From assembly GCA_964356325.1 (NCBI GenBank), contig CAYHHL010000006.1:6536-70535 (forward strand): a DNA stretch of 64,000 nt. Reading direction: 5' to 3'. Below the pieces are notes generated by a model that had not been told where the DNA came from, did no database searches, and saw only the letters and a list, made by a program, of their open reading frames with translations. Below are positions 15,570 through 60,767 of this stretch, in pieces. Within the stretch, counting starts at the first letter, position 1. Every line of letters begins with the position of its first letter. Both the position numbers and the translations under genes were made by a program. The stretch is from an uncultured Enterobacteriaceae bacterium (GTDB lineage: Bacteria > Myxococcota_A > UBA9042).

Positions 15570-15571
15570 CC

Positions 15572-18004: not shown

Positions 18005-18132
<128 letters not shown>

Positions 18133-23611: not shown

Positions 23612-23774
23612 CGCCGCATCTCCCGCTCGATTTCGTCCTTGCGACCCGCGCGGATCAGGCGGTCATGGCGCAAGGCCTGGCGCAACCAGACGCCGAGCAG
23701 GAAGCCCAGCGCCAGGACCATGCCGGCGATCGGCAGGTTGTCGGGTTGCTTCAGGATGGTCAGGAAGTTGTCCA

Positions 23775-28196: not shown

Positions 28197-28248
28197 CGAA
28201 GCTGCCCTCCTTTGCCCCGCCGAGCATAGGGTTGCGCCATTCGGGGTG

Positions 28249-28743: not shown

Positions 28744-28755
28744 CCGGCGCCGTCC

Positions 28756-39148: not shown

Positions 39149-39693
39149 TTCAGTCCCCCGGAGATCCAACCTTCCAGGGCCTTGTACGCCGGTTGGCTGC
39201 GGTCCGGGAACACGATCAAGCCATCGGCGTGGACGATGCCGCCCTGCTTGGGATCCAGGCATTTGAGCAGCAAAGCACTGTTCGCGGCCGACGTCTCGTT
39301 ACGCAAGCGCATGCACAAAGCTTCGTAGTTCCAAGACAACTCAGCATCGGTCAGGTGCTTCTCGTCGAGCGGCGTGTCCGAAAAGGCCGGAGGCGCGCGC
39401 AGGTAATCGACGGCGTACAGCGTCAGGCTGCTGCCGAGCTTGCCGTGGCAGGCGGCAAAGGCGCAACTGTGGCCGATCACAGGCTGGATCTTGGTCACGA
39501 ACACGCTGAAGTCGGCAACGGGCAATGGCGTGTACGGATTATCGACTGACGGGCAGGCAGTGGCAGTCACGGCGAGCCCGGTCAAGATCACGAAAAGCGC
39601 AGCTTGGCGACCGACTTGCGGCCACGGCGCGTCCCGCCGCTCAGTTGTCTGGGCGCATGGGGGACGCTGGACTTTCGGGTCGGTGGCACGCAT
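39145..39693 (-). CDS. Monohaem c-type lipoprotein with a PSCyt1-like C-terminus
   Basis: ALFVILTGLAVTATACPSVD has a lipobox. CAFAACHG is the haem motif. ...AYKALEGWISGGLK is the C-terminus. The true start is probably an internal GTG near 39615. Confidence 0.55.
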   Translation of the reverse strand: MRATDPKVQRPPCAQTTERRDAPWPQVGRQAALFVILTGLAVTATACPSVDNPYTPLPVADFSVFVTKIQPVIGHSCAFAACHGKLGSSLTLYAVDYLRAPPAFSDTPLDEKHLTDAELSWNYEALCMRLRNETSAANSALLLKCLDPKQGGIVHADGLIVFPDRSQPAYKALEGWISGGLK

Positions 39694-39740
39694 GGGCAGC
39701 CGTGGCGGCGTGGTGGTGGCGCCGCGTTGGTGAGGGTGGC

Positions 39741-42995: not shown

Positions 42996-44275
42996 CGCCT
43001 GGCTCAGATGCGAGGCGCTGGCACGCCGCGCCTCCGTTGGCCGCCGGTCTGTCTGCGCTGGCCATCTGCGCTGCGGGCTTCGACATCACACCTGACATGC
43101 CCGCTACGAACCTGTTCCCTTTGCTGTATTATCCGCTGCTGGTGCTGAGTCTCGGCACCGCCTGGTGGGTCTGGCGCCATCCGCGCTGCATCGGTTTTGC
43201 CACGGTGTTGGCGTTTGCCCTGGCGTTCCGTCTGCTTGCTGCCGCGGAACCGCCCTCGCTGTCGAGCGATGTCTACCGCTACGCCTGGGACGGCCACGTG
43301 CAGCGCGCCGGCATCAGCCCTTACGCCCACGCCCCTGGCGATGCCGCGTTGGCGCCGTTGCGCGATGCCGCGATCTACCCGCACATCAACCGCAAACAGG
43401 CGCACACGGTCTATCCGCCGGGCGCGCAGGTGCTGTTCCTGGCGCTGCCCTTTGGCCTGGACGCGGTCCGCCTGGCGATGATCGCCTTGGATCTGCTGAC
43501 GATCGTGCTGCTCGGCCGGCTCTTGCGCGATCTGGGCCAGGATCCGGCGCGCGCGCTGCTTTACGCCTGGTCGCCGCTCGCGATCTACGAAATCGGCAAC
43601 GGCGGCCATCTCGAGGCGGCGGTGCTGCCGTTGCTGCTGGGCGCGGTGCTGGCGTGGCGTGCAGGGCGCTGGCGGACGGTCGGGCTGCTGCTCGGCGGCG
43701 CGGCCTCGCTCAAACTGTATCCGCTGTTGCTCGGCAGTGTTCTGGCGCCGCCACGCTGGTTGCGCGTGCTCGGCCCGGCCGCGGTATTGCTGGGTGTCGT
43801 GTACTTCGCCTATGGCCTCGCGGCGGGCGTGGGCGTGCTGGGCTTCCTGCCGCAGTACCTCGGATCGGCTGAGGATCACAACAACGGACTGCGCGCGCTG
43901 TTCGAGTGGACCCTCGGCCCGCTGCCGGCGCAGTACCGGCGCCCGTTGGCGTTTGCCCTGTGCCTGGTCGCGATGGTGACCCTGATGCGCAAGGCGGCGC
44001 GCGCTGATGTGGCCATCGAACACAAGATTCGCGACCTTGCGGGCATCTACTTGGTGACGGTACCCACGGCGCTGCACCCCTGGTACGCGCTCTGGCTCGT
44101 GCCGTGGCTGTGCATCGCGCCGCACGCCGGGTGGCTGTGGCTGGTGGCGACCGTGCCGCTCTCGTACCTCAAATACGCCAGCCCCGGCGGGGTGATGCCG
44201 GCGTGGGTGATGCCGCTGGAGTTCGTGCCGACCGGAGTGCTGCTGGCGTGGCCGATGTGGCGGCGGCCGGCATGA
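42992..44275 (+). CDS. DUF2029/GT87-like polytopic membrane glycosyltransferase (polyprenol-phosphate-sugar dependent, GT-C-like)
   Basis: It has about 10 TM segments. SSDVYRYAWDGHV is the DUF2029-type periplasmic loop motif. The start overlaps the previous stop (ATGA). Confidence 0.65.
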   Translation: MTPGSDARRWHAAPPLAAGLSALAICAAGFDITPDMPATNLFPLLYYPLLVLSLGTAWWVWRHPRCIGFATVLAFALAFRLLAAAEPPSLSSDVYRYAWDGHVQRAGISPYAHAPGDAALAPLRDAAIYPHINRKQAHTVYPPGAQVLFLALPFGLDAVRLAMIALDLLTIVLLGRLLRDLGQDPARALLYAWSPLAIYEIGNGGHLEAAVLPLLLGAVLAWRAGRWRTVGLLLGGAASLKLYPLLLGSVLAPPRWLRVLGPAAVLLGVVYFAYGLAAGVGVLGFLPQYLGSAEDHNNGLRALFEWTLGPLPAQYRRPLAFALCLVAMVTLMRKAARADVAIEHKIRDLAGIYLVTVPTALHPWYALWLVPWLCIAPHAGWLWLVATVPLSYLKYASPGGVMPAWVMPLEFVPTGVLLAWPMWRRPA

Positions 44276-45723
44276 GCCTGTGGTCCGCCGTAGCCTTGCT
44301 GCCTTACCTCGGACTGCTAGCCGTGATGCTGGCTTACAGCGCCCACAGCCTGGTGCTGGTGATCGTCCACGCCCGCTCGCCGGCCCGCCGCCGAGAGTCG
44401 TGGCCATCGCCAGGAACCGAGCCGCACGTCGTTGTGCAATTGCCAGTGTACAATGAGGAAAATGTCGTCGCGCGGCTCCTGGATGCCGTTGCCGCTTTGG
44501 ATTGGCCACCCGACCGGCTGACCATCCAACTGCTCGACGACTCGACCGATGCCACCGCCGCGCTGGCCGAGCCGTGCGTCGCGCGGATGCAAGAGGCGGG
44601 TCTGCGCGTCCAACACCTGCGGCGGGCCCAGCGGCACGGCTTCAAGGCCGGCGCGCTGGCGCATGGCTTGGCGCAAACCGACGCCGCGTTCTTCGCCATC
44701 TTTGACGCCGACTTCGTACCGCCGCCCGACTTCTTGCGCCGCGCGCTGCCGCACTTCGCCGACCCGAGCATCGCCGCGGTCCAGGGCCGCTGGACGCATC
44801 TGAACCGCGACTGGTCGAGCCTGACGCGCGCTCAGGCCCTGGCCATCGACGGTCATTTCGCCATCGAGCAGGAGGCCCGCTTTCGCGCCGGCTGGTTCCT
44901 CAACTTCAACGGCAGCGCGGGGGTATGGCGGCGCGCGGCGATCGAGGCGGCCGGCGGCTGGTCGGCGGACACCTTGACCGAGGATCTGGACCTTTCCTAC
45001 CGCGCGCAGCTGTGCGGTTGGCGCCTCGCGTTCGATCGCGATCTCACATGCCCCGCCGAATTACCGAGTACTCTGGCTGCCTTCAAGGCTCAGCAACGGC
45101 GCTGGGCAACCGGGTCGATGCAGACGGCGCGCAAGCTCCTGCCGGCGATCTGGCAGAGCCGAACGAGCCTGGCCGCGCGACTGGCGGCGACGCTGCACCT
45201 GACGCACTACGCCGTGCACCCATTGCTGGCGACGACCGCGCTGCTGTCGATTCCGTGCGTTCTGCTGCCAGGGCTGTTGGCGCCCCCGGGGCCTCTGTGG
45301 GGTGTGCTGCTGCCGTTCGGCCTGGCGATGGTCGGGCCCACAGCGCTGTATCTGTACGCGCGCCGGGTGCTCGGGTTGCCGATCGCGCCGGCGCTGCGCG
45401 ATCTCGGCACGCTGACCCTGGTGGGCGTGGGCATCGCCGTCAGCAATGGTCGCGCGGTGTTGCGCGCCTTCCAGCGGCGGCAGATCCCATTCGAGCGAAC
45501 GCCCAAGCTGGGAGAGCCAGGCGACTGCATCCGCCAGCGCTATCCGGTGACCGCGGACGGCCTCGCGCGCATGGAGCTGGCCCTGGCGCTGTATTGCCTG
45601 TGCGCCGCGCTGGGACTGCTGTGGACTGGGGTGTATGCGGTGGCGCCCTTCCTGCTTCTGGACGCCGCCGGGTTCGGCTATGTAGCGGTGCGCGGCGCTG
45701 CAAGTGACCAGGAGCGTTGGTGA
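44272..45723 (+). CDS. Family-2 membrane glycosyltransferase (processive, cellulose-synthase-like fold)
   Basis: VVQLPVYNEENVV ... LLDDSTD ... FDADFVPPPDF ... QQRRWATG is a QxxRW motif. C-terminal TM helices follow. ATGA overlap with the previous gene. Confidence 0.8.
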   Translation: MSLWSAVALLPYLGLLAVMLAYSAHSLVLVIVHARSPARRRESWPSPGTEPHVVVQLPVYNEENVVARLLDAVAALDWPPDRLTIQLLDDSTDATAALAEPCVARMQEAGLRVQHLRRAQRHGFKAGALAHGLAQTDAAFFAIFDADFVPPPDFLRRALPHFADPSIAAVQGRWTHLNRDWSSLTRAQALAIDGHFAIEQEARFRAGWFLNFNGSAGVWRRAAIEAAGGWSADTLTEDLDLSYRAQLCGWRLAFDRDLTCPAELPSTLAAFKAQQRRWATGSMQTARKLLPAIWQSRTSLAARLAATLHLTHYAVHPLLATTALLSIPCVLLPGLLAPPGPLWGVLLPFGLAMVGPTALYLYARRVLGLPIAPALRDLGTLTLVGVGIAVSNGRAVLRAFQRRQIPFERTPKLGEPGDCIRQRYPVTADGLARMELALALYCLCAALGLLWTGVYAVAPFLLLDAAGFGYVAVRGAASDQERW

Positions 45724-46412
45724 AGATCGTCGCCATCCTGCCCGCGCTGAACGAGGCCGCCACCGTCGGAGCGGTGGTTCGTGGCCTCCGAGACTTCGTC
45801 GCGGCAGTGGTCGTGGTCGACGGCGGCAGTAGCGACGACACCTGCGCCCAAGCCCGCGCCGCCGGAGCCGAAGTCGTCGTCGAACCACGCCCCGGCTACG
45901 GCCGCGCCTGCCGCGCTGGCGTCGCCTTCGCCACGGACTCGAGTGCCGAGGTCGTCGCCTTTCTCGACGCCTCCAGCGCCACCTATCCGGAGGACCTGCG
46001 CGCCGTGCTGGCACCGATCCTGAACGGCGGGTTCGACTTCGTGCTCGGCTCACGTGTCAGCGGTCAGGCCGAACCGGGCTCGCTGCGCCCCTTGCAGCGC
46101 GCTGGCAACCGACTTGCCACCCAGCTCATCGCCTGGCTGCACGGCCACGCCTACAGCGATCTCGGCTCGATGCGCGCCATCCGCCTGGGTTGTCTCGCCA
46201 CCCTCGAAATGCAAGAATCCGCGCACGGCTGGCCCGCCGAGATGCAGGTCAAGGCGGCGCGGCGCGGCCTGCGCATCTGCGAGGTGCCCATCCGCTACCG
46301 CCGTCGCCGCGCGGGTCGGTCCAAGGTGTCCGGCACGGCCATCGGCTCGCTGCGGGCGGGTTTCGCCATCTTGCGCGTCGTGCTCACGGGCGCGCGAACA
46401 CGCGGCAACTAG
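45717..46412 (+). CDS. Family-2 glycosyltransferase, polyprenol-phosphate sugar synthase-like (DPM1/GtrB-type)
   Basis: VKIVAILPALNEAATVGAVV ... VVVVDGGSSDDT ... the length and motifs match DPM1/ArnC-type GT2 enzymes. Confidence 0.7.
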   Translation: MVKIVAILPALNEAATVGAVVRGLRDFVAAVVVVDGGSSDDTCAQARAAGAEVVVEPRPGYGRACRAGVAFATDSSAEVVAFLDASSATYPEDLRAVLAPILNGGFDFVLGSRVSGQAEPGSLRPLQRAGNRLATQLIAWLHGHAYSDLGSMRAIRLGCLATLEMQESAHGWPAEMQVKAARRGLRICEVPIRYRRRRAGRSKVSGTAIGSLRAGFAILRVVLTGARTRGN

Positions 46413-46486: not shown

Positions 46487-48121
46487 ATGCACGCCAAGGC
46501 CGCGGTCGCCATCATCAGCAAAGTGCCGCGTCCCGGGCGATCCAAGACGCGTCTGGCCCGGACGCTCGGCTTGCCGGCGGCGCTGGACCTGCACCGCGCA
46601 TTCCTGGCCGATGAACTGCGTCAGTTGCACGCCCCGGATTGCTGGCGGCTCGTGTTCATCCACGATGCCATTGAAACTGCACAAGAAGTAGAGGAACTCG
46701 CCAGCCTCGTCGCCGGTCGCGCCGACTACGTGGTGCCGGGCAAGCGCGATCTCGCTCACGAACTTCTCGAAGCGTTTCGCCTGCTGCTTGCCGAACACGA
46801 GCGCGTGGTCATCGTCAGCGGCGATGTGCCGCACATCGATCCGGAACTGGTGGCGCGCGCGTTGGCGGCGCTCGATACCGCCGATCTGGTGCTGGGTCCC
46901 GGACCGGATGGCGGCTACTACCTCGTCGGGCTCAAGGTGCCGCACGACGTCTTCACTACGATTCCGATGGGTACCGCTGCGGTCGAGAAGGCGACCGTGG
47001 CCGCGGCGCAGCGACTGGGCCTGCAGGTGGCGCACATCGAGGCGATGGTCGATCTGGACGAGGCCCAGGATCTGCTTGCGCTCGAGGCGATGGCACCTGG
47101 GCTTGCCCAAGCGACGCGCGCGGTGGTGGCGCAACTCGGGCGTACCGATCTGAGCGCGACCCTGCCAACCGAGCTCCAGGTCGAGGTCACCAGCCGTTGC
47201 AACCTGCGCTGTTCAGCCTGCCTGATCACCCACGAAACGCTGGCGCCGGATGCGGATCTCGACATGGCGGATTGGCATCGCATCGTCGATGGCCTGCCGA
47301 ACCTTGGCCGCGTGGCCTTCCAGCTCAACGGTGAACCGCTTCTGTGTCGCGACGTATTCGCCATGATCGCGGACGCAGTGGCTCGCGGTGCCACTACGGT
47401 GATGAATACCAACGGCCTGCTTCTCGACGAACAGCGCCGTGTCGGAGTGCTGAGCAGCGGCCTGCATGAACTGCGCGTGTCGCTGGACGGCGCCAGGCCA
47501 CAAACCGTGCTTGAGATGGCAGGCGCGGATATCCTGGGCGCCGTGACGCGCCGCGTGCGCGAAATGGTCCAGGCTCGCGGCTCGGCGACCCTGCCTCGCA
47601 TCAGCCTGTGGATGGTGGCGACGCGGCTCAATATCGAGGAACTGCCAGATCTCGTGCGCCTGGCAGCTGAGCTGGGGGTCGAGGAAGTCTACGCCCAACG
47701 CCTGGTGCTGACCGGCCACGGGGTGGCGCAACGAGCGTACTCACTGCACGGCCGGAGCGGACCGCTGCTGCGCGACGTGGTGGCGCGCGCCGAGGCCATT
47801 GCGGCCGAAACCGGAGTGGCCTTGCGGGCATCGGGCAGGCAGCCGATCCTGGAGAGCTTCGCCGCCTCGGACGACCCGCATCCGCAGCGGGGTTGCTGGC
47901 GGCCCTGGCGCAGCGCTGTGGTGACTGCATCGCTGAAGGTGCTGCCGTGTTGCATCGCCAGCTTCACGCAGTCCTACGCCGAGTTGGAACTGGGCGATCT
48001 GCGAACGCAAACGTGGTCGGACATTTGGAACGGCGCCGCCTATCGACGGTTGCGCAACGGCCTCCTGGACGGCCCGCCGCAGCGCGGATGCCGCGACTGT
48101 GGCAAGGAGTGGAGCCTGTGA
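46487..48121 (+). CDS. Fusion protein: DUF2064 (TIGR04282-type glycosyltransferase-like nucleotidyltransferase fold) + radical SAM with a C-terminal SPASM domain
   Basis: The N-terminus is AAVAIISKVPRPGRSKTRLARTLG ... GDVPHIDPE ... GPGPDGGYYLVGL. The C-terminus has VEVTSRCNLRCSACL (CxxxCxxC), then CWRPWRSAVVTASLKVLPCCIAS ... GCRDCG (SPASM cysteines). Confidence 0.75.
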   Translation: MHAKAAVAIISKVPRPGRSKTRLARTLGLPAALDLHRAFLADELRQLHAPDCWRLVFIHDAIETAQEVEELASLVAGRADYVVPGKRDLAHELLEAFRLLLAEHERVVIVSGDVPHIDPELVARALAALDTADLVLGPGPDGGYYLVGLKVPHDVFTTIPMGTAAVEKATVAAAQRLGLQVAHIEAMVDLDEAQDLLALEAMAPGLAQATRAVVAQLGRTDLSATLPTELQVEVTSRCNLRCSACLITHETLAPDADLDMADWHRIVDGLPNLGRVAFQLNGEPLLCRDVFAMIADAVARGATTVMNTNGLLLDEQRRVGVLSSGLHELRVSLDGARPQTVLEMAGADILGAVTRRVREMVQARGSATLPRISLWMVATRLNIEELPDLVRLAAELGVEEVYAQRLVLTGHGVAQRAYSLHGRSGPLLRDVVARAEAIAAETGVALRASGRQPILESFAASDDPHPQRGCWRPWRSAVVTASLKVLPCCIASFTQSYAELELGDLRTQTWSDIWNGAAYRRLRNGLLDGPPQRGCRDCGKEWSL

Positions 48122-49101: not shown

Positions 49102-50130
49102 ATGGCCCAACAATCGCAGACTTCTCTGGCGTTACAGGCACCCGCCTTCGAAGCATTGTTGACGATCATCGACAGCGTCGACGCCGGCATCTATGTCGCT
49201 GACTTGCAGACCTACGAACTGCTCTTCGTCAACGATTACTTTCGCAATGTCTTCGGAGATATCGCGGGCAAGACCTGTTGGAAGGTCCTCCAGCGCGACC
49301 AGACCGGCCCGTGCGCGTTCTGCACCAATCCGCTGCTGGTCGACGCCGAGGGCAACCCGACCGGCCCGGTGGTCTGGCAGCATCACAACCTCCTGGTCGA
49401 CCGCTGGTATGAAGTGCGCGATTGCGCGATCCGCTGGGGCGATGGCCGACTCGTGCGCCTCGAGGTCGCCACAGACATCACGGCCCAGCACCAGGTGCAA
49501 GACGCCCTGCGCGAAAGCGAGCAGATGCTGCGGGACATCACGTCGGACTTGGGAGAGGGCGTGTTCGTCCTGGACGCTCGCGGCCGCGCGACTTTCGTCA
49601 ATCCCAAGGCTTCGGAACTGCTAGGTTGGACCCCACAAGAACTGCTCGGCACCGATCTGCATGAGATCCTGCACGCGAAACGCCCCGGTGGCGAGGACGT
49701 GCCTGCCGGCCAGTGCGGGCTGCTGCGCGTCCTCGAGACCGGCGAAACTTTCAAAGCGCACGAGGAGTTCTACCGCCGCAAGGACGGGACGTTCGTCCCG
49801 GTCGCGCTGGTCGCCACCTCCATCGTGCGCGACGGGCGCATCATCGGCGCCGTGACTGCATTCCACGACATCACGGCACGCAAGGCGGCTGAGGCCGAGC
49901 AAGCGCGCCTGATTACAGAGTTGCAGGACGCGCTGGCCAACGTCAGGACCTTGCGCGGCCTGCTGCCGGTCTGTGCCTGGTGCAAGAAGATTCGCGATGA
50001 TGACGGCTATTGGCAGCAAGTCGAAGTCTACTTGAGTTCGCACGCCGACGTGAAAGTCACCCACGGCATGTGCACCCAGTGCCTGACCGAAGCGATCGCG
50101 AATCTGGATCAGGAAGCTGCCGCGCGATGA
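49102..50130 (+). CDS. Cytoplasmic tandem-PAS sensor protein with a C-terminal 4-Cys (CxxC...HGxCxxC) motif
   Basis: It has two PAS-like blocks (…IYVADLQTYELLFVND… and …VFVLDARGRATFVNPKASELLGW…). It ends LPVCAWCKKIRDDDGYWQQVEVYLSSHADVKVTHGMCTQC. Confidence 0.7.
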   Translation: MAQQSQTSLALQAPAFEALLTIIDSVDAGIYVADLQTYELLFVNDYFRNVFGDIAGKTCWKVLQRDQTGPCAFCTNPLLVDAEGNPTGPVVWQHHNLLVDRWYEVRDCAIRWGDGRLVRLEVATDITAQHQVQDALRESEQMLRDITSDLGEGVFVLDARGRATFVNPKASELLGWTPQELLGTDLHEILHAKRPGGEDVPAGQCGLLRVLETGETFKAHEEFYRRKDGTFVPVALVATSIVRDGRIIGAVTAFHDITARKAAEAEQARLITELQDALANVRTLRGLLPVCAWCKKIRDDDGYWQQVEVYLSSHADVKVTHGMCTQCLTEAIANLDQEAAAR

Positions 50131-51917
50131 ACAAAGGCCGTATCAGCCGGATCGGCTTTCGTATCGCGGCACCAGCGGCCGTCGCGGCTGTGGCCCTGGT
50201 CGTCGTCTTGTTCTACATGCAGCGTCGCCAGGCGCGGGAGGGGGCGCAAGCCTATGACGGCTATGCCGATCTCCTGGGCCGTCTCATCGTCAACGACCTG
50301 CGCGACGGCATGTTGTCCGAGGACCGTCCGCGCATCCAGCGTGAATTGACGCGCCTGGCCGACATGGCGCCCATCCGCTCGGCGCGCGTCGTGGACAAGC
50401 AAGGCAAGGTAGTGTTTGCCAGCGATGCCGCAGTGTTGGGGACGGTCATGTCTCGCACGGAGCCCAGTTGCGTCGCCTGCCACCAGCGCGGCGTGCCGGC
50501 CGAGCGACGCGGACACATCCTGCGCTTCGAGGCCAACGGTCGGCGGGTGCACCGCGTCGTGCAACCCATCACCCTCGATCACGCTTGCCTGACCTGCCAC
50601 GAGGAGAAGGAGGGCGCGGTGGTCGGCGTGCTCATCACCGATCTCGACGATGACCTGCTGACCGGCGGAGTGCGGGCCGACAGCACGCGCTCGGCCTGGG
50701 CCATCACCGTGCTGTTGGCGCTGCTGGTCGCGGCGGGGGCCGTCTTTGTTTGGCGGCATGTCGTGACGCGTATCCGCAACCTTCGGCATTTGCTCGATCT
50801 ACTGCGCAGCGGTGCGCGTGCCAGTGTCTTGTCGGTCAGTTCCGCGGACGAGATCGACGAGGTCACGCGCGCCGTGCAGGCTCTGGCGCTCGACCTGGAC
50901 GGCCGCGTCGGGCTGGAGCGGGCCAGCCGTCGCCTGGCGCCCGTGCTGGAACGCGAGGCCGGCGCGGTGTTGCTGGTCGACGCCGATGGCTGGATATTCG
51001 CCGCCAACCGCGCGGCCGTGCAGCGCATGGATGTGGCGGGCGAAGGTCTGATCGGTCGTGATCGCAGCCACTTCGAAGGCCCCGGCGAGGGTCTGTCGGA
51101 TCAGGCGCACGACTTGGGCTGGGCGCTGCCGGCCGAAGGGCAGGACGGGCCCGCGGTGGTGGCGCTGGCCGACGCCGCCGGCAAGGTCATTGCCTGCCTG
51201 GAACTGTGGGCGGTCCAACCGGGCGAGCATGCAGCCGATGGTGTGGCTGAAGCGAGTCTTGCCGCGACCACGATCCCTGAGAATCCTGAGTGGTTGCTGT
51301 ATGGTGCGGTGCTCGCCGAGTCCATCCGACCTAGCCGGCAGGGCGGACCGACGGTGATGCGTTTCGACCCGCGACTGGCGCGAGCCCGGCGCCTGGCCGG
51401 CGATCTGGTGGCCTTGGGCAGCGAGGCGGCCACCGAGCGCGAGCAGGTCGATCTCAAGTCCCTGGGCATCATCATGCTGTGGGATCTGGAACGCGACATG
51501 CCGTTGCAGAAGTGGTATTTCCTGTATGATTCTGGGCAACGCGTGACGGGGGCGCGCTACCAACTGCGTGCGTTGCTGGAGCGTCTGGCACGGGCGGCTG
51601 GCCGTCAAGCCGGACCGGGCGGCCAGGTCGTCTTGTTCACGCAGGCTCGTCCCGGCCACGACGCGGTCTTTGTCGCCGCGTGGGCCAGTCGCGCGGGCGG
51701 TTCCGTGCTGCTCGACCCGCCGGACGGTCCGGCCTTGGCCAGCGCCATCGCCAGTGGTCACGGCGGCGGTGTCGAGGTCGATCCGGCCTTCGACATGCAA
51801 GCCATCCCTGGTTTCATGAACATGCGTCTGCCTTGTGGCACCGTCGGCACGCTCTTCGTGGCCGAACTGGCGGTGTCCGGCACGGTGCCCAAGCCGCATT
51901 CCCGGCATCTGGCATGA
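50127..51917 (+). CDS. Membrane sensor with a periplasmic dihaem-c domain (2 CxxCH) and a HAMP domain; no recognisable output domain
   Basis: TM1 is ...AAVAAVALVVVLFY. The periplasmic part has CVACHQ and CLTCHE. TM2 is AWAITVLLALLVAAGAVFVW. HAMP is VTRIRNLRHLLDLL...ADEIDEVTRAVQALALDLDGR. The ATG overlaps the previous stop (ATGA). Confidence 0.6.
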   Translation: MNKGRISRIGFRIAAPAAVAAVALVVVLFYMQRRQAREGAQAYDGYADLLGRLIVNDLRDGMLSEDRPRIQRELTRLADMAPIRSARVVDKQGKVVFASDAAVLGTVMSRTEPSCVACHQRGVPAERRGHILRFEANGRRVHRVVQPITLDHACLTCHEEKEGAVVGVLITDLDDDLLTGGVRADSTRSAWAITVLLALLVAAGAVFVWRHVVTRIRNLRHLLDLLRSGARASVLSVSSADEIDEVTRAVQALALDLDGRVGLERASRRLAPVLEREAGAVLLVDADGWIFAANRAAVQRMDVAGEGLIGRDRSHFEGPGEGLSDQAHDLGWALPAEGQDGPAVVALADAAGKVIACLELWAVQPGEHAADGVAEASLAATTIPENPEWLLYGAVLAESIRPSRQGGPTVMRFDPRLARARRLAGDLVALGSEAATEREQVDLKSLGIIMLWDLERDMPLQKWYFLYDSGQRVTGARYQLRALLERLARAAGRQAGPGGQVVLFTQARPGHDAVFVAAWASRAGGSVLLDPPDGPALASAIASGHGGGVEVDPAFDMQAIPGFMNMRLPCGTVGTLFVAELAVSGTVPKPHSRHLA

Positions 51918-52092
51918 ACACACCATGGCGGTGGTGCCTTCGGGGCAGCCGGAAATGGTTCTGCGGCGTCGGTGGAAATGGTGGGTCTGGGCGATGTTGG
52001 CCCGGGTTCATGGGCGGTACCTTGAGTTCGAGGCCTGCGAGATTCACAGGCTCCGAACAGGGCGCAACCCGCCCGGCAACTGGAGGCCCCAC

Positions 52093-52389
52093 ATGGACAG
52101 CAACTTCATCGGACAGCTCGTACTCAGCATCGCCATCTTCGCCCCGGGTCTGGTCATGCTCGCCGGCCTGGCGTTCATCGGACTGCTGATGATGCTGGAG
52201 CGGACCGTGCTGCGCGGCAAGCCGGACCTGGCCGTCGTGGCGAAGACTTCGGCTGCCGCGCAACACCTGCCGGCCCGCAATCCGGCGCCGGATCGCATCG
52301 TCGCTGGCTTGAAGGAGGCCGTGGCTGAACAGGCCAATCCGGTCGAGCTCGAACGCCCCGCAGACCTGCGCAACAAGGGCAGTCGCTAG
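52093..52389 (+). CDS. Small membrane protein, hypothetical
   Basis: MDSNFIGQLVLSIAIFAPGLVMLAGLAFIGLLMMLE has one or two TM segments. Support is weak (position only). Confidence 0.3.
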   Translation: MDSNFIGQLVLSIAIFAPGLVMLAGLAFIGLLMMLERTVLRGKPDLAVVAKTSAAAQHLPARNPAPDRIVAGLKEAVAEQANPVELERPADLRNKGSR

Positions 52390-52486
52390 AGACTCGAGTC
52401 CGCATCCTGTCAGGAAGCCCGCCTGAGAGACCCAGCGCCAGCAGCCCACGAGGCCCTGGCGCCCGGAGTCGAGGAGAAACAGCGCC

Positions 52487-53836
52487 ATGTCCCGCTTCGA
52501 TGCCCTGCTCAGACGCCTGTCGCGGCCGCAAGATCGTCTCCCGCCCGACCAACACCCCGGCTGGAAGGTACGCCTGCGCATGATGGCCCGCATTGCGTGG
52601 CGTTATGTGTGGGTCTACTTCGCCCTGCTGGCCCTGGCCGTGACGTGGGTCGCCGCTTCCGGCATGGACGTCTATCACCGCACGGAGATGCCCGAGTTTT
52701 GCGGGACTTGCCACGAGATGGGCGCCAACTTCGACACCTGGTCCAACTCCCGCCACGGCAGCATCCGCTGCATCGACTGCCATGCTCGCCCGGGCATCTC
52801 CGGCTGGGTCGCGGCCAAGATGGGCGGCATGTCGCAGCTGTACACTCACCTGACTGCGGATTCCATCAAGGATATCCACCTGCAGACGAAGCACGCCACC
52901 ATCGTCAGCGAAAACTGCTCGCGCTGCCACACCGACAGCGCGCGGGCGGGCGACCGTCACAGCCGTGCGATGGCCCATAGCCAGCACGCGGATCTGGGCA
53001 TACAGTGCGTCGCTTGTCATTCCGGCAATATAGCGCACCCGACCGCCGCCGAAGCGCGCGATTCGGTGGCAGGCCTGGTCGACGTCGGTACCTGCTTCAA
53101 GTGCCACGATGGCAAGCAAACGGTCGGCAAGAAGGTCGCATTTGCCGCGCGCGACGAGAAGTCGTGTGAGAAATGCCACCTGGATGCACACTTTGCCAAC
53201 CAGCATTTCGCGGGTGACAAGTCCGGCACCACGCACAAGCTTTGCCTGGACTGTCACGAGGCGCGTCCGGGGCAACCGCACTACGCCATGGACAAGCGAG
53301 ACCAGGGTCGCCTGTGTGCCAAGTGCCATGAACCGCCCAAGGATCTAGTGTCGACCCACAAGCCCTTCCGGGAGGGCAAGTGCGACGAGTGCCACCGCGT
53401 CATGACCCCGGCCTACCTGTTCCGTCACGGTCCGAAGCCGGACCAGGCGTTCTGTCTGCACTGTCATGATGATGTCGGCGCCGTCCTCGGCCTTGCCGAA
53501 CCCACGACACGGACAGCGTTTGCCGAGGCCAAGACCGACCTGCACCGCCAGCACGCCGACGACATCGGCAAAGCGACGCCCGACCTGTGCCTCAAGTGTC
53601 ATGCCGGCCACGGCAGCACCGCGCCACGCGGCCTGGTCCATCTGGCCCCGAGCGAGGACGGCGATGGCAAGCCGGGCCTCTTCAAGGCGACGAAAACTGG
53701 TGGCAGTTGCAGTGGAAGTTGTCACGGCGACGAGGCCGTCCGCTATGACCTGAATGGCAGCAAAGACGAAGACGAAGACGAAGAAGAAGCCAAGCCGGCC
53801 GCCGGCGCCAAGGTGCAAGAGGAGGTCGAACCATGA
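52487..53836 (+). CDS. Membrane-anchored NapC/NirT-like multihaem cytochrome c (12 CxxCH)
   Basis: An N-terminal TM anchor (WRYVWVYFALLALAVTWVAA) is followed by CGTCH and CIDCH in NapC/NirT spacing. Ten further haem motifs follow: CSRCH, CVACH, CFKCH, CEKCH, CLDCH, CAKCH, CDECH, CLHCH, CLKCH and CSGSCH. Confidence 0.8.
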   Translation: MSRFDALLRRLSRPQDRLPPDQHPGWKVRLRMMARIAWRYVWVYFALLALAVTWVAASGMDVYHRTEMPEFCGTCHEMGANFDTWSNSRHGSIRCIDCHARPGISGWVAAKMGGMSQLYTHLTADSIKDIHLQTKHATIVSENCSRCHTDSARAGDRHSRAMAHSQHADLGIQCVACHSGNIAHPTAAEARDSVAGLVDVGTCFKCHDGKQTVGKKVAFAARDEKSCEKCHLDAHFANQHFAGDKSGTTHKLCLDCHEARPGQPHYAMDKRDQGRLCAKCHEPPKDLVSTHKPFREGKCDECHRVMTPAYLFRHGPKPDQAFCLHCHDDVGAVLGLAEPTTRTAFAEAKTDLHRQHADDIGKATPDLCLKCHAGHGSTAPRGLVHLAPSEDGDGKPGLFKATKTGGSCSGSCHGDEAVRYDLNGSKDEDEDEEEAKPAAGAKVQEEVEP

Positions 53837-56070
53837 TTCACCGTCGCTTCCTGGTGTATTTCCTGGTGCTGTCGGCCATCACCGTGGTCGCGACGGTGGC
53901 TTTCGAAGCCTGGTCGTTCCGGCGCGCCATCGACCACTCCCTGAACCAGAACCTGCTGTTTGCACGCAGTGTCGCCCGCGTCGTGAGCGGTGCGGTCGAG
54001 CAGGAGAAGGCGCACCTCGAGCGTCTGCTGGACGCCGCGGGCAAGGACGCGGCGGATCCCAAGGCCTTGGCCGCCGACCTCAAGACGGTGCGGTTGGCTA
54101 CGCTGGACAAGGACGGCATGGCCCTGTTCGACGACAAACGTCAACTGCTGGCGGCAGATACCGATCCCGGGGGCCTGCCGCCGCCAGAAGTCCTGCTGCC
54201 AGCCCTGCGCCGGACCCAGGCATCGGGGCACGTGGTCGTGAGCGACCTGTGGAAGGGCATCGACCACAAGCCGCGCGTCGCCATCGTGCTCGGGCGCACG
54301 CTGGGGACCGGCGAGACGGCGGCGTGGCGGGCCGCGGTGGTCTACGTGCGCTTGGATGGCAAGAACTTCCAGCGCATCTTCGACAACTTCCTGGTCAACG
54401 AGCAGTCGCGGCTGCAACTGCTCGACTCGACGGGCGTGGCCCTGTACTCGACCTTGCCCCGGGAGCGCTTCCGTTCGGTGGTCCACGGCACCTACTTCAC
54501 GGACAAGGTACGGCTGGGCAACGCCGTGCAAATGCCCTGTCATTCCTGCCACAAGAACGGCGAGTCGGAGACGATTCGGCAAAGCGAGGTGACGACCGTG
54601 GCGCCCCTGGCCGGCATCGGCTGGACGGTGACCGTGCGCGAGGGCACGCGCGACCTGTACGCGCCGATGCGTGAGACCGTGTACACTTCGTCGGCACTGG
54701 TGTCCTTGATATTCGGCTGCTTTGTCGGCTTCTACGTCCTGTTGTCGCGGCGGGTTTTGAGGCCGATGCGTCAACTGGCGGAAACGGCGACGGCCTTGGC
54801 CCAGGACGCTGGCGCAACCCAGACCGGCTTTCGATCCCGGGATGAATTCGCCATGTTGTCGGAGTCCTTCGAGGCGATGCGGTCCCGTTCCACCGCCGCG
54901 AAGGACGCTTTGCCGAACAGCCCCATGCAGGCAGTCCACCGGCAACCCAGCGGGATCGTGGTCTCCGACCTGCGCAAGACCCTGAACGGCCTGGTCGATG
55001 GCGTTGCCAAGAGCAAGGCGGTGCGTTCCGTGGTCTTGCACCTGGACGGACCGGCGCTGGAGGAGGGCTTCTTCGCCTGCCAGGACATCGCCTTGCGTAG
55101 CGAGGGGCGGATCGGCGCGAGCCTGGATGCCGCGGCCGCCGGTCGGTCGCAGGTGAGCGTCGCCGACCTGGACAGCCGCGGAATCGCTGTCGAGAATGCT
55201 CACGAAACCAAGCTGTTCTACGTGCAGCGGATCCGCGTGGCCGACGCGCTGGACGGGGCGTTGTGGATCGGCGTCGCCGATGGCAGCGAGGAACTCGGGC
55301 GCTACCTTGGGCCGACGATGGCGCTCATCGCCAACCAGGTGCAATCGCTCATCGAACGCAGCCTGCTGCAGGACCAGCTGCGGGTGGAGCAGGCGCACAA
55401 GGATCGCATGCTGCGTCACCTGTTCGAGGCAGAAGCCGAGGAACGCAAGCGGATTGCTCGGGAAATCCACGACGGCACTGCGCAGGAACTGACGGCGCTG
55501 CTGCTGGTGCTGGAAACGCTACCCGACGGAGTGTCACCCGGCGACAAGGCCAACATGGAACGGGCCAAGAACCTGGTCGGCCAGATCCTCGATGGCATCA
55601 ACCGGCTGGTGCGGCGCTTGCGGCCGGCGGTGCTCGATGATCTCGGCCTCATCGAAGCCGTTCGCGCAACTGGGCAAAACCTCATGGAAACAGCGGGGAT
55701 CGGCTTCGATCTGGAAGTCGTCGGCGAGGATCTGATGGTGCCCAAGGACGTGGAAGACACGGTCTATCGCGTGTTCCAGGAAACCGCGACCAACGTCGTG
55801 CGCCACGCCGGTGCCACCCACGTCAAGATGCGCCTGCACTTGGAGCCCGAGCGGCTGATGGGCTGGATCGAGGACAACGGGCGCGGCATGGATCTGTCGT
55901 GGCTGGACGACATCGCCGCCCGACCCCGTTGGGGCCTGCTCGGCGTGCGCGAGCGTATCGTCCAGGCGGGTGGTACGATTGACTTCATGACGCCGGCCTC
56001 GGGTGGCCTGCGCATCGTATTCGAAGTGCCGCTCACCCTGAATATGTACGCGAAAGTGGCGCAAGCCTGA
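53833..56070 (+). CDS. Sensor histidine kinase (NarX/HisKA_3 type) with a periplasmic haem-c (CxxCH) sensor domain
   Basis: TM1 is FLVYFLVLSAITVVATVAF. The periplasmic domain contains MPCHSCHK. TM2 and HAMP are ...VSLIFGCFVGFYVLLSRRVLRPMRQLAETATALAQ. The H-box is ERKRIAREIHDGTAQELTAL. HATPase is ETATNVVRHAGATHVKMRLH...EDNGRGMD. ATGA overlap with the upstream gene. Confidence 0.85.
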   Translation: MIHRRFLVYFLVLSAITVVATVAFEAWSFRRAIDHSLNQNLLFARSVARVVSGAVEQEKAHLERLLDAAGKDAADPKALAADLKTVRLATLDKDGMALFDDKRQLLAADTDPGGLPPPEVLLPALRRTQASGHVVVSDLWKGIDHKPRVAIVLGRTLGTGETAAWRAAVVYVRLDGKNFQRIFDNFLVNEQSRLQLLDSTGVALYSTLPRERFRSVVHGTYFTDKVRLGNAVQMPCHSCHKNGESETIRQSEVTTVAPLAGIGWTVTVREGTRDLYAPMRETVYTSSALVSLIFGCFVGFYVLLSRRVLRPMRQLAETATALAQDAGATQTGFRSRDEFAMLSESFEAMRSRSTAAKDALPNSPMQAVHRQPSGIVVSDLRKTLNGLVDGVAKSKAVRSVVLHLDGPALEEGFFACQDIALRSEGRIGASLDAAAAGRSQVSVADLDSRGIAVENAHETKLFYVQRIRVADALDGALWIGVADGSEELGRYLGPTMALIANQVQSLIERSLLQDQLRVEQAHKDRMLRHLFEAEAEERKRIAREIHDGTAQELTALLLVLETLPDGVSPGDKANMERAKNLVGQILDGINRLVRRLRPAVLDDLGLIEAVRATGQNLMETAGIGFDLEVVGEDLMVPKDVEDTVYRVFQETATNVVRHAGATHVKMRLHLEPERLMGWIEDNGRGMDLSWLDDIAARPRWGLLGVRERIVQAGGTIDFMTPASGGLRIVFEVPLTLNMYAKVAQA

Positions 56071-56091
56071 ACGATTGCGCAAGGGGGCCCC

Positions 56092-56748
56092 ATGGCGGCA
56101 CAGGTGCGTATCATCCTGGCCGACGACCACAACCTGGTGCGCGAGGGCATGCGCGGCTTGTTGGAAGTGCGGATGCCGGAAGCCGTCGTGGTGGCGGAGG
56201 CGGCGACCGGTCACGACACCCTTCGAGAATGCGCCCGCCACCAGCCGGACCTGTTGCTGCTGGACATTTCGATGCCTGATCTCGGTGGCTTGGAGGTCCT
56301 GGCCGAACTGCCCAACGTCAGCCCGCTGACCCGCGTCGCCATCGTCTCGCAGTACACCGATCGCGCCTACGTGATTCGGGCGTTGAAGTTGGGCGCCAAG
56401 GCGTACCTGCCCAAACAGGTGATGGCGCGGGAACTGGTCGCGGCGCTGCGCAGTGTGCTGGAAGGCCGCACGTGGCTGGATCCGTCGGTGGCGGATCTGG
56501 TCGTCGCGGCGGCGCTGCATCCGGACGCCGGCACCGAAGCCCCGGAACTCGCTTCGCTGACCGACCGGGAACGCGAGGTGCTCAAGCTGATCGCAGAGGG
56601 CAATACCGCGCCGCAGATGGCGAAACTGCTAGGGATTTCAGTGCACACGGCCAACCGCCACCGCGCCAACCTGATGGAAAAGGTCCACGCGCACAGCAAG
56701 ACGGAATTGGTCAAGCTGGCGGTGCGATTGCGGGTGGTCGACGCGTAG
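56092..56748 (+). CDS. NarL/LuxR-family response regulator
   Basis: The REC domain shows VRIILADDHNLVREG...LLLLDISMPDLGG (phospho-Asp context). The LuxR HTH is LTDREREVLKLIAEGNTAPQMAKLLGISVHTANRHRANLMEKV. Confidence 0.9.
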   Translation: MAAQVRIILADDHNLVREGMRGLLEVRMPEAVVVAEAATGHDTLRECARHQPDLLLLDISMPDLGGLEVLAELPNVSPLTRVAIVSQYTDRAYVIRALKLGAKAYLPKQVMARELVAALRSVLEGRTWLDPSVADLVVAAALHPDAGTEAPELASLTDREREVLKLIAEGNTAPQMAKLLGISVHTANRHRANLMEKVHAHSKTELVKLAVRLRVVDA

Positions 56749-58559: not shown

Positions 58560-60707
58560 TCACTTCCCTAGCTTGCCGCAATTCCCTTGCACTTTAGCCC
58601 AGTTTCCCGGCAGCTTGGGCGCGAATCCCGGCGTGCTCACCGCCGCCGCGGCGATCGCCCCGCTCGGCTCCGGCTTCAGCGCGATCCCGGTTACCGTCGG
58701 CTGCACGCTCGCGGACGCCCAGCCGCCTTTCATCGCCTTGGCAGCCGCGGTCGGACCGTCGCCCAGACTGTCCAGCTTGACCAGCCAGGTGTTGAAGTGC
58801 GTATTTCCTGGGGGGATTGTCCGCCCAGCCAGCGCGAAGCCACCGTCGGGCGTCGCCGCCAAGGCCACGTCGCGTTCCGGGGCCAGCGTGCCGTACGCCC
58901 GCGCGCCCACGACCGTGCCATCGCCAGCCAGGCGTGCCACGAAGGCGTCCTGGCTGCCAGTGCCCAACCCGACGCCGTGGCCCGCGATCCACAGCCCGCC
59001 CGGCACCGCCCTTACCGCGCTCGCCAGATCGTCGTCGCTACCGCCCAGACGCTGCGTCCACACGACTTCGCCGGCAGGATCCAAGCGCAGGATCAACGCG
59101 TCCCAAGCGTTTGCAGACAGGCCCTGGGTCCGGCCTGCCAAGGCAAAGCCACCGTCGGGCGTGCGCGTGGCGGCCAGCGCGAAGTCTTCTGCAGGACTGC
59201 CGTAGGCCTTGGACCACGCGAGGTTGCCATCGGCATCCAGGCGGACTGCCCAGGCGTCGTGCAGTCCCGCGCCCCAGGTCAGCGTCGTGCCGACCAGCAG
59301 GGTGCCGCCCGCGTTGCAGGCACTGTCGCGCGCCTCGACCACGTCAGCTAGCGACTCGCCCGCCGCGCCGCCAAAGGCTCGTGTCCACAGGACCTTGCCG
59401 TCCGCGCTCAGGTGGGCAGCGAACACCGCGCTCTGCTTGCCCAGCTCCGGTCCCGCCGAATAGGTATCGCCTGCCACCACGAAACCGCCGTCCTCGACCT
59501 GACGCACTCCCTTCACCTCGTCGTAACCAGGCCCGCCGATTCGGATCGACCACTGTACGCTGCCGGTGGCGTCGGTGCGCACGACCCAGCCGTCGAACCA
59601 GGGGCCCCAGCTGCGCGTCGTGCCGCCGAGCAGGAAGCCGCCATCGGCCACCTCCGCGATAGCACCCAGTTCGTCGTCATCGTCGCCGCCGTAGCCACGC
59701 ACGACGCCCGGGTTGCCACAGCCGTCGGTAAGCACCAGGAACGCGTCGCGTTTGCCCTCCTTGCTCCAAGCGTCGGTGCCGCCGATGAAGACGAGGCCGC
59801 CGTCCGGGCGGGCCAGCAAGCCGCGCGCCTCCTCTTCCGCCTTGGCGCCGAACGTGCGCGTGAAGGTGACGCCGCAGCCGCCGCCGGATGGGGCAGCGGC
59901 GCAGCTTGGGCCTGGTGGCAAGGCGCAGGGGCCGGGCAACCACACGGGGGTCGGGTCCTGCGGGCAGTCCAGCGCCGAGCCGCCGACGCACGCCCCGTTG
60001 CTGCAATGGTCCGCGGTGCACGGCTTGCCGTCGAGCTCACACGTCCCGGCTAACGTGGCGTGTTTGCAGCCCTTGTTCGGATCGCAACTGTCCGTCGTAC
60101 ACGCGTTGGCGTCGTCGCAGCCGGACCCCAGGTCATCTACCAAACCGTTGCAGTCGTTGTCCGCGCCGTCGCACACCTCAGTGGGAGCGCCTGCGAGACT
60201 GCACGCGGAAAGGCCGCCATCGCCGCAAGTGCGTTGTCCGGTGCACTGGCCGACGAGTCGATCGGTGCCGTCGTAACTGAACTTGACGCAGGCCGTGCCG
60301 ACGCCGGCGGCGATGTCCTCGAAACTACAGGTACAAGCGTCGCCCGATGGCAGGCAGAAGCTGCCCTGGTCGCCGCGCTCGGTACACTTCAGGCCGGCGG
60401 GGCAACTGGGGCCGCTGGCGCAGGGCAGGGCGCAGATCCGCCCGTCGACTCCCGATCCGCGACCGATGGCCACGCAAGCTTCGCCCGACGTGGCGCCAGG
60501 TAGCCCGGCGCAGTCGTCCTGGCTGGCGCACGGATGGCACAAGCCGTTCCAACTCGCAGTGATGTCGGCCACCGCCGTGGCGTCGGTGCTCGCGTCCGGT
60601 AGGGCCACCGGCGCCGCGACGTCCGGTGAATCGGCGTGGCCGGTCGATGGCGAGGGCTGGCTGCAAGCGCTCGCACCGCATAGCCATATCAGCATCGTGA
60701 AGACCAT
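58560..60707 (-). CDS. Large lipoprotein: N-terminal cysteine-rich repeats + C-terminal beta-propeller-type DGGF..AG repeats
   Basis: MVFTMLIWLCGASAC has a lipobox. The Cys-rich part reads CDGADNDCNGLVDDLGSGCDDANACTTDSCDPNKGCKH.... At least seven repeats then follow of the form PDGGFxLAGxTxSxG...DAxxxRLDxxGxxxWxxxxGG. Confidence 0.7.
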   Translation of the reverse strand: MVFTMLIWLCGASACSQPSPSTGHADSPDVAAPVALPDASTDATAVADITASWNGLCHPCASQDDCAGLPGATSGEACVAIGRGSGVDGRICALPCASGPSCPAGLKCTERGDQGSFCLPSGDACTCSFEDIAAGVGTACVKFSYDGTDRLVGQCTGQRTCGDGGLSACSLAGAPTEVCDGADNDCNGLVDDLGSGCDDANACTTDSCDPNKGCKHATLAGTCELDGKPCTADHCSNGACVGGSALDCPQDPTPVWLPGPCALPPGPSCAAAPSGGGCGVTFTRTFGAKAEEEARGLLARPDGGLVFIGGTDAWSKEGKRDAFLVLTDGCGNPGVVRGYGGDDDDELGAIAEVADGGFLLGGTTRSWGPWFDGWVVRTDATGSVQWSIRIGGPGYDEVKGVRQVEDGGFVVAGDTYSAGPELGKQSAVFAAHLSADGKVLWTRAFGGAAGESLADVVEARDSACNAGGTLLVGTTLTWGAGLHDAWAVRLDADGNLAWSKAYGSPAEDFALAATRTPDGGFALAGRTQGLSANAWDALILRLDPAGEVVWTQRLGGSDDDLASAVRAVPGGLWIAGHGVGLGTGSQDAFVARLAGDGTVVGARAYGTLAPERDVALAATPDGGFALAGRTIPPGNTHFNTWLVKLDSLGDGPTAAAKAMKGGWASASVQPTVTGIALKPEPSGAIAAAAVSTPGFAPKLPGNWAKVQGNCGKLGK

Positions 60708-60767
60708 GCGGGGATGGGCGGTACCGGTGCGGGGCATGGCGGCGATCCTTGCGGTGGCTTCGAACGC

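Follow-up and report, generated by a model that had tools for sequence, protein, structure and literature searches.

A conserved five-gene cassette combines a 12-haem NapC/NirT-type cytochrome with two sensor proteins carrying periplasmic haem c motifs

Introduction

Which signal is read by a gene group that places a 12-haem membrane cytochrome between two sensor proteins with periplasmic haem c attachment motifs? The question is raised by positions 49102-56748 of a 64,000-nucleotide (nt) stretch of DNA, referred to as the window (positions 6,536 to 70,535 of contig CAYHHL010000006.1, GenBank assembly GCA_964356325.1, forward strand), which originates from an uncultured bacterium deposited as Enterobacteriaceae and placed by GTDB in the Myxococcota_A lineage UBA9042. 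An earlier reading made from the letters of the DNA, in the following called the original prediction, had described the region as a redox-sensing block of six genes. The present analysis narrows this block to positions 50127-56748, a conserved unit of five genes which encode a predicted membrane pseudo-histidine-kinase (P2), a small membrane protein, a multihaem cytochrome (MHC), a histidine kinase (HK) and a response regulator (RR). We give an even chance to the interpretation that the unit is a self-contained cassette of uncultured Myxococcales-type bacteria which reads a periplasmic redox signal via covalently bound haem, with the cytochrome feeding the sensors.

Periplasmic haem c sensors as such are established, represented by DcrA, by GSU0582 and GSU0935 and by the sCache_heme family (PMC8396549, PMC12889525). 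DcrA of Desulfovibrio vulgaris is a chemoreceptor, the periplasmic domain of which contains one covalent haem and for which redox potential or oxygen has been suggested as the signal (PMC8396549). The Tll0287-like family has been reclassified in a 2026 preprint as a single-Cache domain with covalent haem, designated 'sCache_heme' and presented as the first case of a covalent cofactor in a Cache domain (PMC12889525). Two-haem versions of this sensor type were reported in sensors of Anaeromyxobacter and Geobacter (PMC3831638).

Results

Gene organization

All six genes of the region lie on the + strand, and their open reading frames (ORFs) are backed by coding-type codon bias in a window of about 68% G+C. 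The boundaries in the window agree with those called independently on publicly available copies of the contig, which bears out the six co-directional genes of the original prediction. Both ATGA overlaps named there are present in the sequence, one at 50127, where the stop region of the first gene (PAS4C) overlaps the P2 start, and one at 53833. The genes and the motifs considered below are:

49102-50130, + strand: PAS4C, 342 residues, soluble, two PAS domains and a C-terminal CxxC-29-CxxC motif
50127-51917, + strand: P2, 596 residues, predicted membrane pseudo-histidine-kinase, two haem c motifs
50469-50483, + strand: P2 haem motif 1, CVACH, residues 115-119, kept in 16 of 17 homologues
50586-50600, + strand: P2 haem motif 2, CLTCH, residues 154-158, invariant in 17 of 17 homologues, the canonical Tll0287/sCache_heme motif
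52093-52389, + strand: small membrane protein, 98 residues, one long hydrophobic segment, accessory member of the cassette
52487-53836, + strand: MHC, 449 residues, membrane-anchored cytochrome, 12 haem sites
53833-56070, + strand: HK, 745 residues, histidine kinase
54484-54486, + strand: His218 of HK (VHGTY motif), candidate distal axial haem ligand
54538-54552, + strand: haem c motif of HK, CHSCH (residues 236-240), which precedes the second transmembrane helix (TM2) by about 46 residues and belongs to the membrane-proximal Cache module
56092-56748, + strand: RR, 218 residues, NarL/FixJ-type response regulator, 21 nt after HK

The same genes have been recorded elsewhere: an identical copy of the HK gene is found on an 8-kb ENA metagenome contig, and a protein identical to P2 on a 73-kb NCBI/ENA contig.

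Conservation of the cassette

The window proteins were compared by tblastn with nine genome loci and one metagenome locus (L002-L011); the relatives in genome collections are all metagenome-assembled genomes labelled uncultured Myxococcales or "Proteobacteria". The order P2, small gene (where present), MHC, HK and RR is found in eight loci with complete flanks (L003-L008, L010 and L011), while the flanks themselves differ. None of the genes flanking the cassette in the window has a match in the related loci, so that the cassette is the only part common to both. RR orthologues with 75-81% identity follow the kinase in L003-L011. The HK start, which overlaps the MHC stop by 4 nt in the window, follows it at 2 nt in eight loci and at 10 nt in a further one, and is thus no more than 10 nt away in all ten. 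The conserved unit thus comprises P2, the small membrane protein, MHC, HK and RR.

PAS4C had been counted as part of this unit. This is not borne out, as the gene is absent from all related loci, with no tblastn match in L002-L011, and PAS4C appears to be a lineage-specific add-on outside the cassette.

The most divergent arrangement is found in L002, where P2 is 32% identical to the window protein and the fourth gene encodes a dCache sensor of the haem-motif type with HAMP only (353 residues). Kinase core and regulator are absent from this locus; P2, the small gene, MHC and the sensor-HAMP protein are still adjacent. Since L002 retains the sensors together with MHC, the link between sensors and cytochrome is independent of the transcriptional output. 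The sensor-HAMP gene of L002 (region 6589-18431) is followed by genes for a 1134-residue TPR protein, a Ser/Thr kinase and an HD-domain protein.

A decayed version of the cassette is present in L012 (6001-8107) and L013, which stem from two samples. Here MHC residues 1-364 are fused in frame to HK residues 148-304, the cytoplasmic part of HK is deleted, and 41 residues are missing from the start of the regulator. The fusion protein (P0067) was considered as a natural cytochrome-sensor fusion of the 'Rosetta stone' type and rejected, as the locus, with its two deletions and truncated regulator, is best read as a decaying cassette.

About 130 nt upstream of P2, a GTGACAnAAGTnnGACAAAA element with the direct repeat GACAnAA, spaced one helical turn apart, occurs in L003, L004, L005, L006, L008 and L011; the window, L007, L010 and L002 showed no such element. 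As a candidate for a shared regulator site the element is uninformative, being conserved only within one closely related clade, although it could be a promoter or regulator site.

The histidine kinase HK and its regulator

HK is composed of a first transmembrane helix (TM1), a periplasmic double-Cache (dCache) domain, TM2, HAMP, about 185 residues without assignment, HisKA_3 (43 bits, Pfam) and HATPase_c (39 bits), and is thus a HisKA_3 kinase. Relatives had to be collected with the full-length query, the sensor alone giving six mostly fragmentary matches; among the 32 relatives obtained (37-69% identical) the catalytic residues H546, N654, D681, G683, G685, G701 and G704 are nearly invariant. 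RR contains Response_reg (91 bits, 7e-26) and the GerE helix-turn-helix (57 bits, 2e-15), which assigns it to the NarL/FixJ type as proposed earlier, and HK and RR form a HisKA_3/NarL pair. The Pfam families expected by the original prediction were likewise detected: HAMP, HisKA_3 and HATPase_c in HK, Cytochrom_NNT in MHC and PAS in PAS4C.

The description of HK as 'NarX-type' is valid for the HisKA_3 transmitter, but not for the sensor. Against the NCBIfam models of NarX and NarQ, HK scores 57 and 48 bits, compared with cut-offs of 578 and 553, and the matches are confined to the transmitter; a four-helix-bundle P-box sensor as in NarX/NarQ is not found in HK. Instead, the AlphaFold2 model of the sensor (predicted local distance difference test score, pLDDT, 81) places two PAS-like modules, stacked on each other and preceded by a long N-terminal helix, between the transmembrane helices, which corresponds to the dCache fold. 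The top Foldseek matches are without exception ligand-binding domains of the dCache type (E 1e-10 to 1e-7, target-normalised TM-score 0.58-0.73), including Mlp24, PctB, TlpA, DctB and the HK1S series. On the sequence level, the sensor profile matched no solved sensor domain, only HAMP. Neither dCache_1 (PF02743) nor the Tll0287-like family (PF11845) is matched by the window HK at E <= 0.01; a precomputed dCache_1 match exists for its relative P0057.

The CHSCH motif is situated in the membrane-proximal Cache module. C236, H237, C239 and H240 as well as H218 are invariant in all 32 relatives, and H218 is probably the sixth ligand of the putative sensor haem. Between HAMP and HisKA_3, residues 353-536 have no Pfam match; because family members usually carry a GAF domain at this position, the sequence suggests a divergent GAF.

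The predicted pseudokinase P2

P2 starts with TM1 (residues 13-31), followed by a periplasmic single-Cache domain with two haem c motifs, TM2 (residues 190-208), a HAMP-like helix pair, a PAS domain and degenerate DHp and catalytic domains. The sensor matches the Pfam family Tll0287-like (PF11845) with 28.3 bits at a cut-off of 24.1, the match covering only profile positions 80-143 of 144; matches to the same family are precomputed for the proteins P0007, P0012 and P0013. Motif 2 is aligned with the CQSCH haem motif of GSU0935 (3B42) and GSU0582 (3B47), two haem c sensors of Geobacter sulfurreducens with solved structures, the profile matches having E-values of 0.006-0.009. On the strength of the Pfam and profile matches, P2 is related to these two sensors. 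Motif 1 is an extra motif, which falls into a region gapped in both of these proteins. Together with its preceding strand it aligns with CHSCH of HK and the corresponding strand (local hhalign alignment of 43 columns, 88.6% probability).

In the AlphaFold2 model of P2 (pLDDT 79), the two transmembrane helices and the Cache domain are joined by a cytoplasmic part of about 340 residues, in which the HAMP-like pair of helices and PAS precede a helical hairpin and a domain of alpha/beta type. The best Foldseek match is a full-length WalK model (E 9e-22), and kinase catalytic domains are matched with TM-scores of about 0.7. HAMP stays below Pfam detection in P2, and neither HisKA nor HATPase families are matched in Pfam. 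Among the residues invariant in the family (17 homologues, 42-69% identical) there is no hairpin histidine, no N-box asparagine and no DxGxG. The only invariant histidines are H158, part of haem motif 2, and H545, and residues 385-445 of the window P2 contain no histidine at all. The model thus describes P2 as a conserved full-length pseudo-histidine-kinase with its own two-haem sensor, which is predicted to be catalytically dead. The original prediction of a membrane sensor with a periplasmic dihaem domain and HAMP holds for the domain with two haem motifs and for a HAMP-like segment; the term 'output-less' does not, as PAS is followed by a DHp and a catalytic domain, both degenerate. The accompanying idea of a co-sensor or scaffold fits the pseudokinase nature of P2.

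All CxxCH motifs of the two sensors are enclosed by a pair of hydrophobic helices, the second of which leads into HAMP (HK) or a HAMP-like segment (P2), and are therefore periplasmic, not cytoplasmic. As neither this topology nor the conservation of the motifs (32 of 32 relatives for HK, 17 of 17 and 16 of 17 for P2) contradicts the original prediction, its core stands: both sensors possess conserved periplasmic haem-attachment motifs, and their sequences suggest that haem is attached to them.

The cytochrome MHC

All 24 cysteines of MHC are located in 11 CxxCH motifs and one CSGSCH, resulting in 12 haem sites. The protein has a single N-terminal transmembrane helix (residues 41-59) with the N-terminus inside and five Lys/Arg residues on the N side. 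Residues 44-186 match Cytochrom_NNT (PF03264) with 48 bits at a cut-off of 24.1, which identifies MHC as a member of the NapC/NirT family and agrees with the 12-haem NapC/NirT-type cytochrome predicted earlier. Against the NrfH model TIGR03153, MHC reaches 83.3 bits and stays below the equivalog cut-off of 134.2, so that it is not an NrfH in the sense of this model. Haems 1-3 nevertheless align with NrfH (2J7A_C, E 3e-5), the motif of haem 1 being CGTCHEM with the CxxCHxM signature. The overall architecture is an N-terminal quinol-dehydrogenase module of the NrfH/NapC type, extended by c7/DmsE-like haems. The 12 motifs and CHEM are kept in all nine orthologues with an intact gene, the most distant one included. 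No terminal reductase or nitrite-reductase-type family was found among the scanned neighbours in the window and the related loci.

A wider family of dCache sensors with CHxCH

An exhaustive profile search showed that the family of the HK sensor (window 53833-54690) comprises, at E <= 1e-10, at least 384 cluster representatives, among them the proteins P0061-P0199; its loci are L014-L096. A single CxxCH occupies the corresponding position in 127 of the 139 further representatives listed, in nearly all of them as CHxCH. In Pfam scans of ten family members, all carry HAMP, usually GAF, and HisKA_3 or HisKA, and nine carry HATPase_c; dCache_1 is matched by nine, in five cases above the cut-off (51-70 bits compared with 45), and Tll0287-like by none of the ten at E <= 0.001. 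The family alignment, at 20-33% identity, contains only seven invariant columns, namely an Asp/Gly pair in a strand, the equivalent of H218 and C-H-x-C-H. In P0064 and P0068 CxxCH is lost together with the equivalent of H218. The nearly invariant CHxCH and the upstream 'DH' histidine thus sit in the membrane-proximal module of proteins that domain models label dCache_1 only. No description of haem in a double-Cache domain was found in the literature, and the dCache-CHxCH proteins apparently constitute a large, undescribed family of sensor kinases.

Neighbourhoods of the wider family were sampled in 80 metagenome loci with a narrower alignment, query A5 being too divergent. Among 126 co-directional neighbours from a subset of these loci, the most frequent non-regulatory genes encode multihaem cytochromes (11), 4Fe-4S proteins (7), NrfD (4) and CcmB (3), and 12 of 37 loci have multihaem genes near the kinase. 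In L015, L020 and L038, the genes of a 9-haem cytochrome and a cytochrome b561-type membrane subunit end 3 nt upstream of the kinase; in L016, a set of Fe-S, NrfD and cytochrome c genes is located upstream. These are different quinol-oxidising modules occupying the same position. A recurrent context of anaerobic respiration can accordingly be claimed for the wider family, together with two sub-families in which a quinol-oxidising module is tightly coupled to the kinase. In other members the gene directly upstream encodes FdhD, a MobA-like/NUDIX fusion or the selenocysteine synthase SelA (L017, L018; L029, L033; L048), which points to control of molybdo- or seleno-enzyme respiration.

The small membrane protein and PAS4C

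The small gene is real, as had been predicted, and its start was set at ATG 52093, with GGAGG 7 nt upstream. Homologues occur in L002, L007, L010, L011 and L012; the gene is lost in one clade (L003, L004, L005, L006 and L008). Pfam and NCBIfam scans assigned the protein to no family.

PAS4C matches the Pfam families PAS_9, PAS and PAS_4, and the PAS gene with a 4-Cys C-terminus of the original prediction is seen in the sequence. Its tail, LPVCAWCKKIRDDDGYW...HGMCTQC (CxxC-29-CxxC), has no match in Pfam, NCBIfam, PDB or the literature and could be a metal- or Fe-S-binding output module. Four further cysteines (C59, C71, C74 and C108) are found in the first PAS domain.

Other genes in the window

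Outside the region described so far, the window contains the following loci:

22862-31031, - strand: split cytochrome b, an 834-residue protein containing eight CxxCH motifs, a ferredoxin, and a flavoprotein of the NuoF-like type with fused Fe-S domains
39525-42146, + strand: an 873-residue protein with 9 CxxCH, beside a DUF3570 gene
46490-48121: one ORF fusing a DUF2064/CofC-like nucleotidyltransferase to radical SAM and SPASM, downstream of two family-2 glycosyltransferases (44104-46412)
58560-60737, - strand: a 725-residue ORF, rich in Cys and resembling a secreted protein or lipoprotein, in which Dictyostelium-type CTDC and MopE-like metal-binding repeats are followed by many repeated beta-propeller-like segments

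No evidence ties the respiratory genes at 22862-31031 or 39525-42146 to the cassette.

Discussion

From the observed domain architecture, topology, motif conservation, synteny and tight gene coupling the following course of signalling may be proposed. MHC would oxidise menaquinol, and its haem chain would equilibrate with the sensor haems or with periplasmic acceptors, so that the oxidation or ligation state of the sensor haems would report the balance between quinone pool and periplasm. A change at the haem beside TM2 would pass via HAMP and the GAF-like linker to the DHp and catalytic core, the pseudokinase P2 would modulate HK through protein-protein contact, and the phosphorylated NarL-type RR would alter the transcription of a regulon. 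Best supported is a functional partnership of the cytochrome with the sensors, since MHC lies inside the cassette, is coupled to the HK start, persists without transcriptional output and has no terminal reductase beside it; the signal may then be the redox state of the periplasm or the quinone pool, or a haem ligand. A more far-reaching version is offered tentatively and with considerable doubt. In this version the 12-haem NrfH-like cytochrome would have been recruited as a sensory input that wires the menaquinol pool to the haems of the dCache kinase and the pseudokinase by direct electron transfer, so that the cell would read the redox poise of quinone pool or periplasm, and the dCache-CHxCH family would be a widespread, so far unrecognised class of haem-based extracytoplasmic redox sensors using the membrane-proximal Cache module.

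Several points weigh against a redox-reading cassette fed by its own cytochrome. The link between MHC and the sensors is drawn from the genes, not from experiment or a predicted complex. The P2 C-terminus showed no similarity to the DHp and catalytic domains of HK in hhalign, so that the pseudokinase assignment rests on the predicted fold. The HK model is weakest at residues 221-250 around the haem motif, although low confidence is to be expected here if the haem is missing from the prediction. In the wider family, enrichment of multihaem genes per ORF is not significant (18 of 328 near the kinases, 3 of 71 farther away), and hence no general association with cytochromes is claimed, only recurrent arrangements in sub-families; moreover, the immediate neighbours of the kinases are diverse (FdhD, MobA-like, SelA). 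Bacterial regulators most often sit beside the operon that they control, which would account for the synteny as well. In addition, the signalling-type sCache_heme domains tested so far behave as NO sensors, not as redox relays (PMC12889525).

The last two points lead to an alternative that is possible, if rather doubtful, in which the sensor haems bind NO, O2, CO or sulfide as ligands and MHC is the respiratory or detoxifying product of an autoregulated operon. Regulators commonly adjoin their targets, and in L030, L032, L039, L052, L053 and L091, loci of the wider family, cytochrome, Fe-S or NrfD genes do lie downstream of the regulator in the manner of a target operon; the selectivity of signalling-type Cache_heme domains for NO (PMC12889525; 10.64898/2026.05.25.727664) points in the same direction. 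In the cassette, however, MHC is not placed after the regulator but upstream and coupled to the HK start, and in L002 it persists with both sensors after kinase core and regulator are gone. A quinol dehydrogenase without catalytic partner would furthermore be an odd sole target, and the invariant distal histidine suggests a six-coordinate haem, even though this ligand may be displaceable. The tight coupling and the persistence of the sensor-cytochrome pair would likewise fit a feedback in which apo- or holo-MHC binds the sensor domain and tunes HK, reporting its own maturation or occupancy without any electron transfer. A precedent is given by TorC of E. coli, a NapC/NirT-family cytochrome, the apo form of which inhibits TorS via the periplasmic region (PMC8534201, citing Ansaldi 1999). 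Such a feedback is nonetheless unlikely, because it leaves the invariant haem motifs of both sensors unexplained and because the sensor of TorS is haem-free and has a different, all-helical fold.

According to the original prediction, the block is placed so as to regulate the neighbouring cytochrome loci (39.7 kb and 22.9-31.0 kb) and the glycosylation genes as a redox or gas sensor. The window does contain the 9-haem protein (39525-42146), the glycosyltransferases (44104-46412) and a cytochrome b/8-haem cytochrome c set (22862-27675), and in one clade of relatives genes for an O-antigen ligase and an acyltransferase are found upstream. Yet nothing but the cassette is common to the window and the related loci, the cytochrome b/c set lies on the opposite strand at a distance of 20 kb, and no binding-site evidence emerged when a common regulator site was sought upstream of P2; the proposal is thus not borne out and appears quite improbable. 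Finally, the two cysteines and three histidines of CHxCH and its partner histidine in HK could bind a metal (Cu, Zn, Fe) or act as a thiol-disulfide switch in place of haem, the more so as the haem in this sensor is deduced from sequence and the AlphaFold2 model puts the motif into a low-confidence strand. We regard this as highly improbable: exported CxxCH is the recognition motif of cytochrome c maturation systems, the organism encodes many c-type cytochromes, Ccm genes adjoin members of the family and the HK motif aligns with a P2 haem motif. Moreover, the CHHCH of DcrA is said to have been shown by Fu et al. in 1994 to carry haem c.

Compared with known systems, P2 resembles GSU0582, GSU0935 and the Tll0287-like proteins in its single Cache between two transmembrane helices and in the aligned haem motif, and differs in being fused to a presumably dead kinase, not to a chemoreceptor or active enzyme; the HK sensor, with its predicted double-Cache fold, is not detected by the Tll0287-like model. 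The motif of DcrA, which we take to be CHHCH, has the CHxCH pattern of the HK family, but its output is chemotaxis, whereas that of HK is a kinase with its regulator, and we know of no quinol dehydrogenase or pseudokinase encoded together with DcrA. In its predicted fold the HK sensor is similar to the dCache_1 proteins DctB, PctA-C, Mlp24 and TlpA, and relatives of HK pass the dCache_1 cut-off. To our knowledge, however, the dCache domains described recognise small organic ligands, for the most part in the membrane-distal module and with no cofactor involved; HK differs in carrying a conserved haem-attachment motif in the membrane-proximal one.

MHC shares the N-terminal membrane helix, the four-haem core and CxxCHxM at haem 1 with NrfH, CymA and NapC, but has eight further haems and neither NrfA nor another reductase partner nearby. 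For P2, kinase-like folds without catalytic residues are known from RetS (acting on GacS), DivL and NifL, which operate through protein contact and all three of which were among its Foldseek matches; they lack the two-haem periplasmic sensor of P2, the contact of which with HK is an inference. In the TMAO respiration of E. coli, TorC is encoded in the target operon together with the reductase TorA, and TorS/TorR includes no pseudokinase. The likeness to the cassette consists in a multihaem cytochrome of the NapC/NirT family that contacts the periplasmic domain of a sensor kinase and modulates it (PMC8534201). The Cache_heme-HAMP (CHH) receptors combine a haem c Cache with HAMP, have no enzymatic output of their own and are paired with Ser/Thr kinases (10.64898/2026.05.25.727664). 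The 353-residue sensor-HAMP protein of L002 has the same layout, with a Ser/Thr kinase two genes downstream; in contrast to the single Cache of CHH receptors, the window HK has a double Cache fused to a working HisKA_3 kinase, and P2 carries PAS and the predicted pseudokinase.

The cassette is a real, conserved system and a lead to a large unannotated sensor family. Although periplasmic haem c sensors are known, few have been characterised. To these the locus adds a double-Cache kinase sensor with an invariant CHxCH and histidine in the membrane-proximal module, the least understood part of dCache, as well as a conserved, predicted two-haem pseudokinase co-sensor and a quinol dehydrogenase embedded among signalling genes and tightly coupled to them. 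If MHC indeed feeds electrons to the sensors, the cassette would connect the respiratory chain directly, on the molecular level, to gene regulation, and would thereby offer a concrete and testable account of the way in which metal- and anaerobe-type bacteria perceive the redox poise outside the cytoplasm.

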